A stretch of DNA of 9,768 nucleotides from a virus (taxonomy: Duplodnaviria > Heunggongvirae > Uroviricota > Caudoviricetes). Positions 3,901 through 9,768 of the stretch are shown here, piece by piece. The translations under genes were made by a program, and so were the position numbers. Every line of letters starts with the position of its first letter. Within the stretch, counting starts at the first letter, position 1. The DNA lies in the IMG/VR virus record IMGVR_UViG_2728369554_000006; one strand, 5' to 3'. Under the pieces are notes generated by a model. That model saw only the letters and a list, made by a program, of their open reading frames with translations. It searched no databases and was not told the origin of the DNA.

Positions 3901-3912
3901 TGTGGAGTGAAT

Positions 3913-5955
3913 ATGGCAGTACAGATTTCAGGTGTGCTGAAAGATGGTGCGGGAAAACCAATACAGAACTGCACTATTCAACTGAAGGCAAAGCGTAACA
4001 GCACCNNNNNNNNNNNNNNNNNNNNNNNNNNNNNNNNNNNNNNNNNNNNNNNNNNNNNNNNNNNNNNNNNNNNNNNNNNNNNNNNNNNNNNNNNNNNNNN
4101 NNNNNNNNNNNNNNNNNNNNNNNNNNNNNNNNNNNNNNNNNNNNNNNNNNNNNNNNNNNNNNNNNNCGCCATGACGGAAGATGATGTCATGCCGGAGGCA
4201 CTGCGCCGTTTTGAGCTGATGGTGAATGAAGTGGCACGTCATGCCGGAGCATCATCACAGAGCGCAGCGGCAGCAAAGAAATCCGAAACTGCAGCGGCAT
4301 CATCGAAGAACGCGGCGAAAACCTCAGAAACGAATGCAGCTAACAGCGCACAGGCGGCAGCGGCCTCGCAGACTGCATCGGCAAACTCCGCGACAGCAGC
4401 CAAAAAATCAGAAACCAGCGCGAAAAATAGCGAGACAGCCACAAAGGCCAGCGAAAAAAACGCAAAATCCAGCCAGACGGCAGCGAAAACCAGTGAGACG
4501 AATGCCAAAGACAGTGAAGCCAACGCAAAGGTGAGCGAAACAGCGGCGGCGAACTCGGCGAAAGCATCGGCAGCAAGCCAGACGGCAGCAAAAGCAAGTG
4601 AAGATGCTGCCAGAGAATACGCAAACCAGACAGCAGAGCCGTACAGATATGTTTTACAGCCGCTGCCGGATGTGTGGATACCCTTTAATGATTCGCTGGA
4701 TATGATTACGGGCTATTCTCCGGGTTATAAAAAAGTGAAGATTGGTGATAATGTGGTTCAGGTTGCCAGTGATAAACAGGTTAATTTCAGTCGCGCATCA
4801 ACGGCAACATATATCAACAAATCTGGCGAACTGAAAACGGCGGAAATTAATGAGCCGCGATTTGAGTGTGATGGCCTGCTTATTGAGGGACAAAGAACGA
4901 ACTACATGCTCAATTCGGAAAGTCCAGCCAGCTGGGGGAAGTCATCAAACATGGATGTGCCCGAAACCGGGACGGATAGTTTTGGTTTTACTTATGGAAA
5001 GTTTGTCTGCAACGATTCTCTGGTTGGGCAAACTTCGGCTATTAATATGGCATCAATTGCTGCAACAAAGTCAGTTGATGTCTCAGGCGATAACAAGTAC
5101 GTGACAACCTCATGCCGTTTTAAAACAGAACGACAGGTAAGGTTACGTATACGGTTTGATAAGTATGATGGTAGTGCAACAACTTTTCTTGGCGATGCGT
5201 ACATTGATACGCAAACGCTTGAAATTAATATGACAGGTGGTGCTGCCGGCAGAATTACGGCACGAGTCAGGAAGGATAAGACCACGGGCTGGATTTTTGC
5301 AGAGGCAACGATTCAGGCAATTGATGGTGAGTTAAAAATAGGCTCTCAGATACAGTATTCTCCTGAGCAGGGTGGGGCAACAGTATCTGGTGACTATATT
5401 TATCTTGCCACCCCACAAGTAGAGAATGGGCCGTGTGTATCATCATTTATTATTTCAGGAGGCAGCGCAACGACAAGAGCCAGTGATTTGGTTAGTATCC
5501 CCACCAGAAATAATCTTTATAAGTTACCATTTACTTTTTTACTTGAGATTCATAAAAACTGGGATATTGCACCAAACGCCGCACCCCGCGTGTGGGATAT
5601 AGCAGCAGCCAATACCGGGCAATCAGCAATTGCAGCAATCAACAGAGGTAGTGGTAAGTTATATATGAGTCTGTCAAACCCTTCAGGCTCGTATGTTAAT
5701 AGCGCAGCGACAGATGTATTTGCAGAGAAAACCACATTTGGATGTATTGCAAAAGCTGATGGTCACTTTCATGTGGTGACAAATGGTAAAGCGGTTAATG
5801 AAGTTTATTGTGAATATAATGGCGTGACCGCTGATAAAAATATCCGATTTGGAGGGCAGACGAATACTGGAGAACGACATCTGTTTGGCCATATTCGCAA
5901 TTTCCGCATATGGCATAAAGAATTAAATGACAGGCAATTAAAAGAGGTCGTATGA
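3913..5955 (+). CDS. stf: Side tail fibre protein (lambda Stf-like N-terminus, Ser/Ala/Thr repeat shaft, C-terminal LamG/concanavalin-like receptor-binding domain). N-terminal region is partly masked by Ns.
   Basis: ATG at 3913 is preceded by GGAG (3903-3906). N-terminus MAVQISGVLKDGAGKPIQNCTIQLKAKRNST and …AMTEDDVMPEALRRFELMVNEVAR resemble the lambda/O157 Stf N-terminus. The C-terminus …LFGHIRNFRIWHKELNDRQLKEV fits the typical ending of a LamG-like jelly-roll domain. The 681-aa ORF is in frame across the N run. Confidence 0.85.
   Translation: MAVQISGVLKDGAGKPIQNCTIQLKAKRNSTXXXXXXXXXXXXXXXXXXXXXXXXXXXXXXXXXXXXXXXXXXXXXXXXXXXXXXAMTEDDVMPEALRRFELMVNEVARHAGASSQSAAAAKKSETAAASSKNAAKTSETNAANSAQAAAASQTASANSATAAKKSETSAKNSETATKASEKNAKSSQTAAKTSETNAKDSEANAKVSETAAANSAKASAASQTAAKASEDAAREYANQTAEPYRYVLQPLPDVWIPFNDSLDMITGYSPGYKKVKIGDNVVQVASDKQVNFSRASTATYINKSGELKTAEINEPRFECDGLLIEGQRTNYMLNSESPASWGKSSNMDVPETGTDSFGFTYGKFVCNDSLVGQTSAINMASIAATKSVDVSGDNKYVTTSCRFKTERQVRLRIRFDKYDGSATTFLGDAYIDTQTLEINMTGGAAGRITARVRKDKTTGWIFAEATIQAIDGELKIGSQIQYSPEQGGATVSGDYIYLATPQVENGPCVSSFIISGGSATTRASDLVSIPTRNNLYKLPFTFLLEIHKNWDIAPNAAPRVWDIAAANTGQSAIAAINRGSGKLYMSLSNPSGSYVNSAATDVFAEKTTFGCIAKADGHFHVVTNGKAVNEVYCEYNGVTADKNIRFGGQTNTGERHLFGHIRNFRIWHKELNDRQLKEVV
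4006..4166. other. 161-nt N run (masked or unknown sequence) inside the stf 5' region; reading frame is preserved across it
   Basis: Contiguous n characters; the ORF continues in the same frame on both sides, suggesting 1:1 masking rather than a sized gap. Confidence 0.8.
4255..4615 (+). repeat. Tandem degenerate repeats encoding a Ser/Ala/Thr/Lys-rich fibre shaft (motifs such as AAKTSETNAK and AKKSETSAKNSETA)
   Basis: Reiterated gcagcgaaaaccagtgagacgaatgc-type units visible in the DNA; translated protein shows periodic K-x-SET-x-A motifs. Confidence 0.75.
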
Positions 5956-6230
5956 AAGATTTAACTTTGAAGTTTCATGACAAACTGCAGTTTAAGGCCT
6001 TCCTGTCATCTCTTGGCTGGGCGGAAGATGAAGACCTCCAGAATAAACTGTTAGTTGATGAAATTGGTTTCACCTACACAGAAACAGGGGTAACAGAAGA
6101 GGGAGAACCTGTCTGTATCCGGAATGATGGTTATTTTGTCAACATTCGCATTCTTGATGACTTGTTTGATGTTTCTGTATTCTCTGATTATGTCGTGGAG
6201 CTGGAAACACCGCTTCGGGAATGGAGCTGA
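5952..6230 (+). CDS. Hypothetical small acidic protein (92 aa), translationally coupled to stf
   Basis: ATG overlaps the stf stop (ATGA at 5952-5955); AGAGG lies 5 nt upstream; D/E-rich translation; ORF directly abuts the next gene. No family recognised. Confidence 0.6.
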   Translation: MKDLTLKFHDKLQFKAFLSSLGWAEDEDLQNKLLVDEIGFTYTETGVTEEGEPVCIRNDGYFVNIRILDDLFDVSVFSDYVVELETPLREWS

Positions 6231-6237
6231 AAGGAGG
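6231..6237 (+). promoter_or_regulatory. Shine-Dalgarno sequence (AAGGAGG) for the 97-aa ORF
   Basis: Perfect AAGGAGG with a 5-nt spacer to the ATG at 6243. Confidence 0.7.
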
Positions 6238-6242
6238 AAATA

Positions 6243-6536
6243 ATGGATATAAGCCCCTTACTTCATGCACTTTGTGCTGTGGCTGCGCAGATACTGGTTG
6301 GTCTTTTTACCGGAAACTGGGCTTACGGAGCGATAGCCGGTTGTACGTTCTTCATTGCGCGTGAACATACCCAGGCAGAATATCGCTGGATTGAAATGTT
6401 CGGGCATGGCAAGCGAATGAATATGCCGTGGTGGGGCGGTTTTGATCCGCGTGCTTGGGATGTGGCAAGCCTGATGGATTTTGCTGTGCCGGTGGTGGCG
6501 TGTCTGCTGGTCTGGCTGTTGGTTAATCGTGGGTGA
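6243..6536 (+). CDS. Hypothetical small integral membrane protein (97 aa, two predicted hydrophobic helices, Trp-rich loop)
   Basis: Strong SD; hydrophobic stretches LLHALCAVAAQILVGLFTGNWAYGAIAGCTFFIA and VASLMDFAVPVVACLLVWLLV separated by a polar loop (RMNMPWWGGFDPRAW). No family recognised. Confidence 0.65.
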   Translation: MDISPLLHALCAVAAQILVGLFTGNWAYGAIAGCTFFIAREHTQAEYRWIEMFGHGKRMNMPWWGGFDPRAWDVASLMDFAVPVVACLLVWLLVNRG

Positions 6537-6546
6537 AAAAAGGTGA

Positions 6547-6675
6547 GCTGTATATGCAACGGAGGAAGAAACCCCGTTGCTGGAAGCCAGGAAAAAGTAT
6601 CGGGTGTTGCTGAACCGGGTTGATACATCAACTGCACCTGATATTGAGTGGCCTGCTGTCCCTGTTATGGAGTAA
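6547..6675 (+). pseudogene. tfaD: 5'-truncated remnant of a tail fibre assembly gene (tfa C-terminal ~40 codons, no start codon)
   Basis: Translation [42 protein letters not shown] matches the conserved Tfa C-terminus (…[16 protein letters not shown]…). An in-frame stop lies immediately upstream (6544-6546) and there is no start codon. The symbol is tentative, taken from the position relative to ybcY in the K-12 DLP12 prophage as I remember it. Confidence 0.7.
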
Positions 6676-6729
6676 TCATTGGGATTATGCCGCAGCACGT
6701 CTTAAGCAAGAACGTGCTGTGGTTGGATG

Positions 6730-7386
6730 CTATTTTTTCCCTGAAGCGGAAAACATTACTACAGTACCTTGAACCTTGGTTTTAACATTCTCGAAATGCT
6801 CTGAGAGTATATGTGTTAAGCCTTCTTCGGAATCTTTTGTGTTTGAAAAGATGCCTTTCTGATTGTAAATGCGCATCAGTTTTTGACCGAAGCTATTGTG
6901 CACAACTCCATCGCCAAGAATTGTGGCTCCGTATAGAGTTCCATCGTCAGTTAAGGCCTGCGCCGCATTGCGTATTACACAGCTTTTTGTAGATATATTT
7001 CCAGGCAGGCAGTGAAGAAGGTAAAACATGGAAATGGAATCAAATTGACCATGTAACGCCGCGGGATAAGGTTCAAAAACATCATGGCTAATTTTATGTT
7101 TAATTTTTGATTCCCCTGCCCTTGTAGATGCCGCGTTCAGGCTAGCTTCGTTCAAATCCATTAAAGATATCAGACTACTCTCAGGTACGTGAGTAAGGTA
7201 AAACCCAGTTCCAACACCAATATCCAGATGGTTGTTACCTAAATGTTCCAGAAAGTGTGGAAGAAGGTGTTCCTTTGTAGGACATCCCCATGCAAGCCGA
7301 TTTGATACACCCAAAACCCACCAGTCATAAAGCTTTAGGGTAAGTGGTGTGTAAATTTTAGCCCCATCATCTGTGTTTTTTTTCAT
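6730..7386 (-). CDS. ybcY: Class I SAM-dependent methyltransferase (ybcY-like), apparently intact. A further in-frame ATG sits at 7396-7398.
   Basis: Motif I LDIGVGTGF, an acidic residue ending the next strand (SLMDLN), and a motif II-like FDSISMFYLLHCLP. GGTGA lies upstream of the MKKNTDDG start. Position and orientation between two tfa remnants match remembered ybcY in DLP12. No DPPY/NPPY motif, so it is probably not a DNA N6/N4 methyltransferase. Confidence 0.7.
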   Translation of the reverse strand: MKKNTDDGAKIYTPLTLKLYDWWVLGVSNRLAWGCPTKEHLLPHFLEHLGNNHLDIGVGTGFYLTHVPESSLISLMDLNEASLNAASTRAGESKIKHKISHDVFEPYPAALHGQFDSISMFYLLHCLPGNISTKSCVIRNAAQALTDDGTLYGATILGDGVVHNSFGQKLMRIYNQKGIFSNTKDSEEGLTHILSEHFENVKTKVQGTVVMFSASGKK

Positions 7387-7454
7387 TAATTTCACCATGT
7401 TATAGTTTTATTTATGAATTAAATCAATTATGGCGATGAATTACAAGGGGTTAA

Positions 7455-7760
7455 ATGCTGCCGCAGCATAGCGATATTGAAATAGCCTGGTATGCTTCGA
7501 TACAGCAGGAGCCGAATGGCTGGAAGACCGTCACCACACAGTTCTACATCCAGGAATTCAGTGAGTATATTGCGCCACTGCAGGATGCTGTAGATCTGGA
7601 AATCGCAACGGAGGAAGAAAGATCGTTGCTGGAGGCATGGAATAAATATCGGGTATTGTTGAATCGTGTTGATACATCAGTAGCTCTGGGTATGAAGCTG
7701 TTTGTAACTCATATTACAGTAACGGCCATTACTATATCGAAGGTGCAAAATGTATATTGA
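7455..7760 (+). pseudogene. tfaX: Truncated or chimeric tail fibre assembly protein fragment (tfaX-like, 101 codons)
   Basis: …[39 protein letters not shown] matches the Tfa C-terminal region, but the ORF then diverges ([14 protein letters not shown]…) and lacks the N-terminal half of a full Tfa of about 190 aa. Confidence 0.6.
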
Positions 7761-7889
7761 TTTGATATTTTATAAATTTGCTTCGAATCTGGCATGTCAA
7801 CTTTTGATTAAAGTAATATCAGTTTTCGGCGAAAAAAGGACCGTGTACATGAGACGATTTCATACAAGAATAACAAAAATATGAATATG

Positions 7890-7921
7890 CTCCCAATGCA
7901 ATATATGTTTTGCATTGGGAG
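7890..7921. terminator. Perfect 11-12 bp inverted repeat between the convergent tfaX-like ORF and the hydrolase gene; possible bidirectional terminator or regulatory hairpin
   Basis: ctcccaatgca (7890-7900), 10-nt AT loop, tgcattgggag (7911-7921). Flanks are AT-rich but the T-runs do not directly abut the stem on either strand. Confidence 0.35.
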
Positions 7922-7943
7922 CAAATAGCGGAATATTTTGAAG

Positions 7944-9428
7944 TTATTGTATTTCTGCTTCAGAATTTCCTGGGCAGTATATATTTTCTATTTTTTGTGG
8001 AGTGATCAGGTGATGTACAACTGCTTTATCTACACATAAATTAACTCCGGTGAGAGCTAATGTATGCCCATCACCATTTATTGTTAGTAACGGGCTGGAA
8101 AATTTCTCTGCCATCTTACGGGCATTAATCCAGGGCGTTGTTGGGTCGTATTTGTGTGCTACAAACAGTAAACCAGAGGGCAGAACAGTATTTTTCAGGC
8201 GAGTTTTGTTCAGGTCGCTATGTATTGGCCATAATTCACAAAAATCAGGTGAATCGGAACGTCCATTGTCAAAGTTAATAGCCGGGAAGGCATTCGCAAG
8301 AGCGTCTTTTCGGGATTTTCGCTCTTCTGGTGTTAATTGCTCATCCCCCTGATCTACACAAAGGATTACCCCCGAAGCATCGCTTGACTCTTCTGAGGCT
8401 ATCGGAGCACTGAGCGCAGTTTCAATTTCATTACTGACAATCCCCTGAGAGAACTGGCGTATGGCAGTTGCAAGGGTTGGCCATGATGAACGCCATAGCA
8501 GAAGGTCTGTTGTTAATGATATGAGTTCATCTGAAGATATATTTTCTCCCTTACTGTCTAATAAAGGTTTGTGATGTAATTTTGATAATAGCTCATGGAA
8601 CTGAGTTATTGCCTTATCTCTGTCTGAAGAAAGCGGGCAACTTTTTGTACGCGCACACCAGGATGCAAAGCGATCAAACGTTTCCTGATAACTCTGTGCC
8701 TGTTTGAGTTGCCATGTGAAGTTGTCCTCCAGGTCATCGATATCGACGACTCCATCAAGAACGATAGATCTTACGTTGTAGGGAAAACGTTCTGCATATA
8801 AGGCTGCAATTTGAGTTCCATACGAATACGCCACGGCTGTCAGTTGTTTATCCCCCAAGGCTTGCCTAATACGATCAATATCGTATACAGCCTCGTTAGA
8901 GCCGATATGGCGAATGACTTCGGCTCCGGTATTATGGATACAGGCATTAATTTTATTTAATACTTGTTGCTTTTCGGTTATGTTTTCCTGAGTCTCTGTA
9001 TCTGATTGCCGGCAGTTTATTGTCGGAGTGGACTGTCCGACGCCTCGAGGATCAAATCCAATAATATCCCATGACTCACGAAGATTTGTGACTGGCCAGT
9101 CAAAGTTAATATAAGGATTTATGCCTGGTAACCCGGGACCACCACTTATTATCAGGATACTTCCTTTATGCTTGCTTTTTGCCGGCAATTTTGTCAACGC
9201 TAGTTTGACTTGTGATTTTTTTTCATAAGAAGCATCTCCGCCTGTGTCTGTATATTTTAATGGAACAGACAAATAACCACATAGTAAGTCAGGAGACGGT
9301 TTTTCCTCACCAAACCAGTGGTTGAATTGACTGGCCATACAGGATTGCCACTGTATCTGCTGGGCAGATACGGTTACTGGTAGAAGTAACGTTAAAACAA
9401 CTTTGAAATGAGTAATTATTTTTCGCAT
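7944..9428 (-). CDS. Secreted alpha/beta-hydrolase, S33 (prolyl/tripeptidyl aminopeptidase-like) serine peptidase family, with N-terminal Sec signal peptide
   Basis: 494-aa ORF. N-terminus MRKIITHFKVVLTLLLPVTVSAQQ is signal-peptide-like. GFDPRGVGQS motif, nucleophile elbow AYSYGT (G-x-S-x-G-like) and C-terminal NGDGHTLAL (candidate catalytic His) are typical of the alpha/beta-hydrolase S33/TAP family. Markedly AT-rich relative to J. Confidence 0.8.
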   Translation of the reverse strand: MRKIITHFKVVLTLLLPVTVSAQQIQWQSCMASQFNHWFGEEKPSPDLLCGYLSVPLKYTDTGGDASYEKKSQVKLALTKLPAKSKHKGSILIISGGPGLPGINPYINFDWPVTNLRESWDIIGFDPRGVGQSTPTINCRQSDTETQENITEKQQVLNKINACIHNTGAEVIRHIGSNEAVYDIDRIRQALGDKQLTAVAYSYGTQIAALYAERFPYNVRSIVLDGVVDIDDLEDNFTWQLKQAQSYQETFDRFASWCARTKSCPLSSDRDKAITQFHELLSKLHHKPLLDSKGENISSDELISLTTDLLLWRSSWPTLATAIRQFSQGIVSNEIETALSAPIASEESSDASGVILCVDQGDEQLTPEERKSRKDALANAFPAINFDNGRSDSPDFCELWPIHSDLNKTRLKNTVLPSGLLFVAHKYDPTTPWINARKMAEKFSSPLLTINGDGHTLALTGVNLCVDKAVVHHLITPQKIENIYCPGNSEAEIQ

Positions 9429-9566
9429 TGTGTCTCTGAATATCGGAATAAAGATAAAATTTGAATATATTGAGGTCTTGTGTTGCGGTAAGAGATTACA
9501 CGTTATGACATAGGTTAAATGCTTACAAAATTAGTGGATATTGTCTACTTGTAACTGTAAACAAAT

Positions 9567-9595
9567 TCCCCGGGGTTATACAATACCACCGGGGA
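9567..9595 (-). terminator. Candidate intrinsic terminator of ompT
   Basis: On the minus strand: GC stem CCCCGG/CCGGGG (plus 9568-9573 and 9589-9594), a rather long ~15-nt loop, then AUUUGUUU, about 20 nt after the ompT stop. Confidence 0.4.
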
Positions 9596-9614
9596 GAAAA
9601 TCTGGTTAACTTCG

Positions 9615-9768
9615 TTAAAAGGTGTACTTAAGACCAGCAGTAGTGATGAAGTTATAGTTTTCTATGCCTGCACCATTTTTGCTGTAGTCTGAAGTGTTAT
9701 CATTGTGATCATAAAGTGAAGTATTACCTTTTTTATTCGTAACCCGATTCCATGCGCCTTCAACATAA
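9615..9768 (-). CDS. ompT: Outer membrane protease OmpT (omptin), C-terminal 50 codons plus stop; gene continues beyond the window end
   Basis: Reverse-strand translation YVEGAWNRVTNKKGNTSLYDHNDNTSDYSKNGAGIENYNFITTAGLKYTF* matches the remembered E. coli OmpT C-terminus, including the terminal aromatic beta-barrel signature. Confidence 0.85.
   Translation of the reverse strand, partial: YVEGAWNRVTNKKGNTSLYDHNDNTSDYSKNGAGIENYNFITTAGLKYTF

Follow-up and report, generated by a model that had tools for sequence, protein, structure and literature searches.

A methyltransferase cargo gene between two Tfa scars in a DLP12-type lambdoid prophage locus of Escherichia coli

Introduction

How does an apparently intact methyltransferase gene come to lie between two incomplete copies of the tail-fibre chaperone gene tfa, and is it more than a passenger there? 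The question is raised by a 9,768-nt stretch of DNA (hereafter the window) from a virus of the Caudoviricetes, IMG/VR record IMGVR_UViG_2728369554_000006, in which a minus-strand gene for a class I S-adenosylmethionine (SAM)-dependent methyltransferase is flanked by two direct copies of the tfa 3' end. The initial annotation of the window described a mosaic junction, at which tail-fibre modules had recombined and a cargo methyltransferase had been captured. Our analysis upholds the junction and the cargo, but the Tfa pieces do not go back to one capture event, as the presence of the left piece in phage 21 reveals. We consider it likely that the methyltransferase is cargo of the lysogenic-conversion type, lying between two separate, non-functional Tfa scars in the cargo zone of a lambdoid prophage. 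The features on which this explanation turns are the following.

6556-6677, plus strand: Tfa 3' scar A; the last 40 codons and the stop, without a start codon (Caudo_TAP positions 95-130 of 131)
6678-6729, no strand: 52-nt spacer from the tfa stop to the methyltransferase stop; its positions 13-52 are part of the invariant core described below
6730-7386, minus strand: class I SAM-dependent methyltransferase, 218 amino acids (aa); intact allele of K-12 ybcY (Pfam, PHROG 2132)
7387-7454, minus strand: AT-rich spacer with candidate sigma-70-like promoters (sites predicted by a sequence scan)
7455-7547, plus strand: non-Tfa 5' part of the tfaX open reading frame (ORF); Pfam and PHROG matches to Tfa start only at about residue 29-31
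7548-7679, plus strand: Tfa 3' scar B, the tfaX remnant, which ends after ...NRVDTS (Caudo_TAP positions 75-121 of 131)

Results

A known and very common prophage locus

The segment 6556-7684 of the window aligns with the tfaD 3' end-ybcY-tfaX segment of E. coli K-12 at 96.7% identity over 1129 nt, a comparison that the initial annotation had recommended, and the K-12 homology is bounded by the outer edges of the two Tfa pieces. Nucleotide homology, synteny, the position of ybcY on the opposite strand and ompT downstream were all found as in the DLP12-type ybcY/tfaX locus. Judged by these matches, the locus is the DLP12-type tfaD-ybcY-tfaX-appY-ompT region of E. coli, a known type that is already annotated, and the region forms a cargo zone ('moron' or exchangeable locus) where the late operon of a lambdoid prophage ends. 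The stretch 4659-9768 is collinear with the complete genome of E. coli Combat2C1 at 98.8% identity, and positions 4167-9768 are free of runs of N; the tfa-methyltransferase arrangement is therefore not an assembly artefact. In Combat2C1, both Tfa pieces are annotated by PGAP/RefSeq as N-terminally truncated pseudogenes, and the RefSeq label of the methyltransferase gene is 'class I SAM-dependent methyltransferase'.

The arrangement is not particular to the window. The core 6690-7679, counted as present at >=80% coverage, occurs in 3,798 of 5,426 complete E. coli genomes (about 70%), at a median of 2 and at up to 6 places per genome, while the block 5900-9768 is found whole in 713 genomes and the methyltransferase gene lies on 166 IMG/VR contigs. 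Viable lambdoid phages also carry it: 2G7b, ev243, PhiR49_1, PhiR26_1 and Turner all have methyltransferase-tfaX-hydrolase-ompT between their fibre genes and int, and their b-region cargo block is 97-98.8% identical to the window at the nucleotide level. Phage 2G7b shares orf97 and scar A with the window but has a 7-nt deletion in tfaX, whereas PhiR26_1 differs by a full-length Tfa on the left and Turner by an invertase block. The right end of DLP12 in K-12 resembles the window in gene order, orientation, promoter hexamers and downstream ompT. On the other hand, K-12 has a full-length tfaD where the window has a phage-21-type fibre module followed by the 122-nt scar, appY where the window has a hydrolase resembling TAP, and a null ybcY allele, its ATG lost by a 2-nt deletion, where the copy in the window is intact. 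The K-12 tfaX retains about 20 more Tfa nucleotides than that of the window, but reaches a stop after ...LLEA.

The two Tfa pieces are truncated copies

A repeat search identified 6556-6630 and 7605-7679 as an ungapped 75-nt direct repeat with 63 of 75 positions identical (84%) and a spacing of 1049 nt, close to the roughly 80% that had been estimated by eye. The first 16 nt, GCAACGGAGGAAGAAA, are the same in both copies, as had been noticed. Since chance alone would produce fewer than 1e-18 such repeat pairs in DNA as long as the window and of its composition, the similarity of the two segments is significant. Their translations, 25 aa each, agree at 21 of 25 positions. The assignment to the tfa 3' end is borne out by Pfam Caudo_TAP (PF02413), which scores 55.1 bits for scar A and 65.1 bits for scar B against a cut-off of 22.1.

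Neither piece contains the N-terminal part and start codon of a full-length Tfa. In the frame of scar A there is a stop at 6544-6546, and no ATG or GTG precedes ATEEE. A fusion of the upstream gene orf97 to scar A by read-through or frameshifting was considered and rejected, as the reading frame of scar A is +1 to that of orf97; the stop of orf97 itself lies at 6534-6536, ahead of the stop in the scar A frame. The right-hand piece is longer than first described: 7605-7679 is indeed Tfa, but the Tfa sequence already begins at 7548 and runs for 132 nt, 88.6% identical to K-12 tfaD. It is fused to 30 unrelated residues and ends after VDTS, and its homology to K-12 stops at 7684. On these alignments, the 75-nt overlap is only what two truncated tfa copies still have in common. 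We regard the Tfa pieces as non-functional scars of separate illegitimate joins.

Mosaic flanks around an invariant core

The flanks of the methyltransferase gene were surveyed in 92 related loci, which also form the sample for the locus counts below. An invariant core extends from the spacer (positions 13-52) through the methyltransferase, its promoter spacer and the non-Tfa 5' part of tfaX up to and including the 75-nt block; the spacer 6678-6729 is conserved at 94-98% in most loci. Across the loci, it is the tfaX remnant on the right that constantly accompanies the methyltransferase. This core is bordered by at least five types of left flank and at least three types of right flank. On the left we found a longer tfa in 46 loci, orf97 with the scar in 11, other tfa joints in 13 and unrelated cargo in 20. 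On the right, the tfa 3' end is complete in 39 loci and the 52-nt spacer recurs behind it, 30 loci including K-12 have tfa cut at position 97/98, and 17 have the hydrolase module directly after the 75-nt block, which is the type of the window. The breakpoints fall at repeat positions 1, 23, 75, 97/98 and 122 and at spacer positions 7, 13 and 47, and are thus concentrated within and close to the conserved 3' end of tfa. The idea of a single capture is contradicted by the roughly 20 of 92 loci in which other cargo (IpaH, an invertase or Mn-catalase), and no Tfa piece, lies to the left of the methyltransferase.

The left joint at 6555/6556 is sharp, and is the same in phage 21, 2G7b, Combat2C1 and several IMG/VR contigs; where tfa is full-length, as in the K-12 and PhiR26_1 genomes, the homology begins exactly at 6556. 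In phage 21, the genes stf-orf92-orf97 are followed across the same joint by the initial 57 nt of scar A and then by sitABCD on the opposite strand. Because phage 21 has the scar together with sitABCD, scar A belongs to the phage-21-type fibre module and predates the association with the methyltransferase. Where the right copy is complete, about 226 nt are duplicated around an insert of about 823 nt. A target duplication made by transposition was rejected as the source of the repeat, since about 226 nt is far too long; the duplication is best explained by an illegitimate join of DNA upstream of the methyltransferase to the middle of the tfa gene of another phage.

From these joints we infer the following order of events. 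A phage-21-type fibre module (stf-orf92-orf97) would have replaced stf-tfa, leaving scar A (6556-6677). Scar B (7548-7679) would stem from the join of DNA upstream of the methyltransferase to the mid-tfa of another phage, and would later have been cut at 7679/7684 by the hydrolase-ompT module. Given that lambdoid phages conserve the 3' end of tfa, the scars may serve as homology patches, through which Rad52-like phage recombinases could swap fibre modules and cargo. In earlier experiments, short stretches of stf-tfa homology that had diverged by ~12% mediated the recombination of lambda with Rac and Qin, for the most part by Red-beta (PMC3945230), and the ends of lambda-like prophages have been described as exchangeable effector loci (PMC8112680). 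The clustering of breakpoints in the tfa 3' end agrees with both reports.

Two tfa copies beside a gene of opposite orientation might also be a relic of a Gin/Cin/Pin-type switch of host range, whose invertible tail-fibre segment would once have enclosed the methyltransferase. Duplicated tfa copies are typical of the Mu G, P1 C and e14 P segments, and a DNA invertase gene lies between tfa and the methyltransferase in phage Turner and about four related loci. However, the copies in the window are direct and not inverted, the window contains neither an invertase gene or ORF nor bracketing inverted repeats, scar A is present in phage 21, which has neither methyltransferase nor invertase, and no alternative fibre C-terminus adjoins either scar. 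We rejected an invertible segment, largely on the direct orientation of the copies, and give such a relic hardly any credence. In the same vein, the methyltransferase had been called 'inverted'; it is simply on the opposite strand, with no indication of an inversion.

The methyltransferase gene is intact and under selection

The minus-strand ORF 6730-7398 is open for 222 aa, and for 218 aa from the ATG at 7386, in keeping with the 218-222 aa first read from it. The start is most likely the ATG at 7386 and not the alternative upstream ATG at 7398, as judged from four results: positions 1-218 of the PHROG 2132 profile align with residues 5-222 of the 222-aa ORF, the homologues have 218 aa, three related loci lack the upstream ATG but retain the ORF, and a GGTGA Shine-Dalgarno sequence lies 5 nt ahead of the ATG at 7386. 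The alignment with K-12 ybcY contains 648 identical bases of 653, five differences and no internal gap, and hence no frameshift. The contrast drawn at the outset with a ybcY pseudogene in K-12 proved correct, with the lesion located at the start of the gene, where K-12 has lost 2 nt (ATGAAAAAAAAC to ATAAAAAAAC) and thereby the ATG.

Selection on the gene, a check that had been proposed by the initial annotation, is evident in both polymorphism and divergence. Among 86 close copies, of which 84 are open for 218 aa, the 21 polymorphic codons comprise 17 synonymous and four conservative nonsynonymous ones (K/R, L/V, N/S and K/R), giving a ratio of nonsynonymous to synonymous polymorphism (pN/pS) of 0.067 (binomial p = 2e-8 against neutrality). 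The corresponding substitution ratios (dN/dS) are 0.20, 0.17, 0.15, 0.09 and 0.09 against homologues with 90, 88, 84, 75 and 68% protein identity, and 49 homologues, with identities as low as 56%, agree throughout in 50 alignment columns. The methyltransferase gene is under purifying selection.

These figures bear on whether the ORF could be a decaying passenger without function that happens to be open here. The null allele of K-12 and the binding of H-NS to the region in that strain would suit a passenger, and so would the run of eight A behind the ATG, which is prone to mutation. Yet 84 of 86 copies are intact, and neither the low pN/pS and dN/dS values nor the 50 invariant columns are compatible with decay; the selection tests reject a passenger at the population level, and we attach almost no weight to it. 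As a side observation, the A8 homopolymer directly follows the methyltransferase ATG (7375-7386, minus strand), and the 2-nt loss of K-12 lies at the junction of the ATG and the A-run. All 84 intact copies have A8, and the sample showed no sign of phase variation.

The tfaX remnant evolves almost neutrally

The tfaX ORF (7455-7760) presents a different picture. It matches full-length tfa genes at the nucleotide level from 7548 onwards, and its first 93 nt are not Tfa-like. The polymorphic codons are synonymous in 13 cases and nonsynonymous in 18, and two contain stops; within codons 1-41, the non-Tfa part, 11 nonsynonymous or stop codons face two synonymous ones. Nonsense or frameshift alleles occur in about 13 of the 92 copies. 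The K-12 gene is stopped after LLEA, and in the viable phage 2G7b the 7-nt deletion has led to an annotation as two ORFs. In the window, unrelated sequence stands in place of the last 13-14 Tfa codons, which 58 of the 92 copies keep. We read this as almost neutral evolution, the scar being retained because it abuts the methyltransferase promoter.

Could tfaX nevertheless be a functional short chaperone or regulator that forms a two-gene divergent unit with the methyltransferase? It is found with the methyltransferase in essentially all loci, has its own family, PHROG 2341, and in 58 of 92 loci is an 88-89-aa ORF with a complete Tfa C-terminus. The near-neutral polymorphism (18 nonsynonymous and two stop against 13 synonymous codons), the ratio of 11 to two in the non-Tfa part, the null alleles, which include those of K-12 and of a viable phage, and the exchanged last Tfa residues of the copy in the window all speak against a function, and the linkage is explained equally well if tfaX merely holds the promoter region of the methyltransferase. 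A functional tfaX is therefore improbable in our view, though it deserves somewhat more credit than the invertible segment or the passenger.

Predicted promoter region and moron traits

A scan of the AT-rich spacer yielded two candidate promoters, TTGATT-17-TATAAC at 7427-7399 and TTAACC-16-CATAAT at 7454-7427, the first of which is conserved here and in all 86 copies. In K-12, the spacer between ybcY and tfaX has a peak of RpoD in genomic SELEX (systematic evolution of ligands by exponential enrichment) and binds H-NS, and TTGATT-17-TATAAC was reported there (PMC3946193). The gene lies on the strand opposite to the late genes. The GC content is 39-43% in the methyltransferase and its spacer, compared with 51-55% in the 5' part of the fibre gene and the orf97/tfa-scar stretch. 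With this deviant composition, and with the variable presence among close phages exemplified by phage 21, which has sitABCD, the locus has these two marks of a moron. Apart from a hairpin of the hydrolase module, the search for intrinsic terminators and known RNAs found nothing in the region.

The methyltransferase would be read from a sigma-70-type promoter of its own, situated in the AT-rich spacer to which H-NS binds, and in the direction opposite to late transcription. Expression from the prophage would fit, because the gene is oriented against the late operon and has its own predicted promoter; the lysogen would thus express it as a lysogenic-conversion gene and not as a virion function, possibly under silencing by H-NS. 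Its product would be a functional cytoplasmic enzyme. Known morons and effector loci (lom, bor, sitABCD of phage 21, nle/esp, ipaH) are similar to the locus in their position after the fibre genes near the prophage end, in their lower GC content, in a likely promoter of their own and in their patchy presence among similar phages (PMC8112680). The locus differs from them in encoding a methyltransferase of the cytoplasm, which lacks a secretion signal and has not been linked to a phenotype, and in that a terminator was not detected.

Fold and type of the methyltransferase

Four Pfam methyltransferase models exceed their gathering scores: Methyltransf_12 (37.6 bits against 30), Methyltransf_23 (28.8 against 27), Methyltransf_25 (27.7 against 27) and Methyltransf_11 (24.6 against 21.2). 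Motif I, DIGVGTG, occupies residues 55-61, and D55, G57, G59, G61 and D77 are invariant in the 49 homologues, so that both the glycine-rich motif I and the acidic residue at the end of strand 2 of class I enzymes are present. The AlphaFold2 (AF2) model, with a predicted local distance difference test (pLDDT) score of 90.7, has the seven-stranded alpha/beta fold of this class. The family also has an invariant signature of its own, consisting of YDWWVL, H53, H101, H125-C126, N164 and Y174-N175.

The initial annotation found no DNA-methyltransferase motifs, and our searches concur: regular expressions for motif IV ([DNS]PP[YFW] or PCQ) had no match in the protein, no DNA-methyltransferase Pfam model matched it, and no DNA methyltransferase was among the top fold matches. 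These results bear on the question of an orphan DNA methyltransferase that would shield the phage genome from restriction. Such enzymes are frequent in phages, and PADLOC returned a weak match to mad2 (14 bits, E 0.003), which is not a meaningful one and was its only hint. The catalytic motif IV is missing, however, and 218 aa leave no room for a target-recognition domain; we therefore rejected this role, and rate its chances as minimal.

Other routes to the substrate were followed. No family-specific NCBIfam model or equivalog was reached (best 17 bits against a cut-off of 175-180). Known small-molecule and lipid enzymes, namely bacterial PmtA, insect JHAMT, Plasmodium PMT, UbiG/Coq5, CouO/NovO and DhpI, have 12-21% identity to the protein and template modelling (TM) scores of 0.55-0.67 in a flat ranking, and the methyltransferase differs from them by its own signature. 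Among ORFs within 3.5 kb of 53 chromosomal homologues, no cluster recurred in more than seven loci, and the contexts in Enterobacter and Salmonella are unrelated. A search for fusions covered the best 150 of 426 family representatives (E <=1e-30), nearly all of which have about 215-235 aa; eight longer ones among these 150 carry no informative extra Pfam domain, one being a eukaryotic-type RCC1 fusion. Conserved neighbours, domain fusions and close structures thus gave no clue to the substrate. The literature on ybcY/tfaX consisted of gene lists, a SELEX table and work on the appY promoter island, and no functional study turned up. Because motif I and D77 are present while DNA-methyltransferase motifs, an NCBIfam equivalog and a meaningful PADLOC match are absent, fold and motifs indicate a class I methyltransferase of the small-molecule or lipid type, and not a DNA methyltransferase.

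Relatives of the methyltransferase gene

Stand-alone chromosomal homologues with 50-65% identity occur in Enterobacter, Salmonella, Yersinia, Erwinia, Pantoea and Proteus, and also in Pasteurellaceae, Pseudomonas, Xanthomonadales and Oxalobacteraceae. Copies with 84-90% identity were found at one end of a Citrobacter prophage, on a plasmid fragment from Salmonella and in E. coli islands flanked by insertion sequences (IS), and a 67% identical homologue is carried by about 600 Klebsiella plasmids, among them many large ones of K. pneumoniae, often at two places per plasmid. It is a reasonable inference from this distribution of sequences that mobile elements probably captured the methyltransferase from a chromosomal gene family widespread in Gammaproteobacteria. 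Copies with 99-100% identity also appear in records labelled as a Bacillus sp. metagenome-assembled genome (MAG; L094), a Planococcaceae MAG (L103) and a Bacillus thuringiensis plasmid (H71); these are most likely due to contamination or mis-binning.

Neighbouring genes and other cargo in the slot

The remaining features around the locus are listed here.

3907-5955, plus strand: side tail fibre gene of the phage-21 type; 682 aa with a 161-N gap inside (Pfam phage_tail_N)
5952-6230, plus strand: orf92, small fibre-module gene of the phage-21 type, also in phage 21 (PHROG 1361, 3e-42)
6243-6536, plus strand: orf97, putative membrane protein of the phage-21-type fibre module (PHROG 1443, 2e-58); named after the phage 21 annotation
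6537-6555, no strand: filler up to the sharp old joint between fibre module and mid-tfa; genomes with full-length tfa match from 6556
7680-7943, no strand: 3' flank of the hydrolase module, with a terminator-like hairpin at 7888-7923
7944-9428, minus strand: secreted TAP-like alpha/beta hydrolase, neighbouring cargo (Pfam Abhydrolase_1 and Abhydrolase_4; PHROG 20134; PADLOC C3a206)
beyond 9560, with the 3' end at 9565-9768: ompT (by annotation and nucleotide homology)

The 3' part of the side tail fibre gene is 99.6% identical to that of phage 21. In the side-fibre module (3907-6536), a Laminin_G_3-like C-terminus of stf is followed by orf92 and the membrane protein orf97, without a full-length Tfa, and orf92 and orf97 may be stand-ins for the Tfa chaperone. 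The hydrolase has 494 aa, a signal-peptide-like N-terminus and a match to the candidate-defence model C3a206 of PADLOC at 6.8e-56; it adjoins ompT, and in 2G7b, PhiR26_1 and Turner both lie within the phage genome beside int. The window as a whole is a scaffolded draft, with 10-N spacers at 873-882, 1865-1874 and 2731-2740 and the 161-N gap at 4006-4166. Its pieces 1-872 and 886-1863 map with few differences to overlapping parts of the J gene (1764-2635 and 1988-2965 of locus L001), and by this overlap they are probably redundant contigs, stitched together from several prophages.

The slot of the methyltransferase also houses bona fide virulence cargo. A type III secretion system (T3SS) effector of the IpaH type (L013, 4973-6616, and about 18 similar loci; Pfam NEL at 6e-77, LRR_TTSS) lies directly downstream of the methyltransferase stop, and this NEL E3 ligase sits between the methyltransferase and a DUF4376 gene that resembles a fibre chaperone. 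In the same slot after tfa are the DNA invertase block of phage Turner (L012, 2354-2944) and sitABCD of phage 21 (L010, 4729-8178), while E. coli O157:H7 F6321 has genes for Mn-catalase, a ferritin-like protein and stress functions there (L179, 2331-4544). In O157:H7, an IS66 element lies between tfaX and the hydrolase. Some loci have a third chaperone-like fragment (of the DUF4376 type by eye, without a Pfam match) beyond tfaX and before a Rha-family gene (L039, 685-966, minus strand), so that 3' fragments of chaperone genes pile up serially at the prophage end.

Discussion

Our work describes a methyltransferase gene that is kept intact by selection while the Tfa pieces on either side of it are remnants of different joins. 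Several observations weigh against this explanation and temper parts of it. The two copies in the window share merely 16 nt of perfect identity, and are therefore poor substrates for recombination with one another. The scan found no intrinsic terminator downstream of the methyltransferase, which leaves the promoter-gene-terminator layout of a moron incomplete. The methyltransferase promoter is a prediction from sequence, the -10 element proposed from SELEX would start the transcript too near the ATG at 7386, with loss of GGTGA, and the binding of H-NS may keep the gene silent under laboratory conditions. The 88-89-aa ORF with a complete Tfa C-terminus in 58 of 92 tfaX copies leaves a small chance of some residual function. 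Finally, the substrate class is read from weak fold similarity (12-21% identity, TM scores of 0.55-0.67) in a flat ranking.

For a gene of this kind, one may speculate about a lysogenic-conversion enzyme that methylates a lipid of the host envelope or a small metabolite, although we think this specific role doubtful. It could, for example, perform a PmtA-like N-methylation of phosphatidylethanolamine or detoxify a phenolic or heterocyclic compound. If so, it might change the surface properties of the lysogen, its susceptibility to antimicrobial peptides or phages, or its fitness in the gut. Such a role would account for the fact that about 70% of E. coli genomes retain an intact gene, frequently in several of their prophages and in the company of OmpT, IpaH and a secreted hydrolase.

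As a structure, the locus is an ordinary and very common E. coli prophage cargo locus, an instance of lambdoid mosaicism at a place already named in K-12. It has been annotated automatically in thousands of genomes, and as a structure is of little importance. It does illustrate, in numbers, how the conserved 3' end of tfa links fibre modules to cargo in recombination. To conclude, the uncharacterised methyltransferase is among the most widespread cargo genes of E. coli prophages and is under clear purifying selection; identification of its substrate would close a real gap in annotation.

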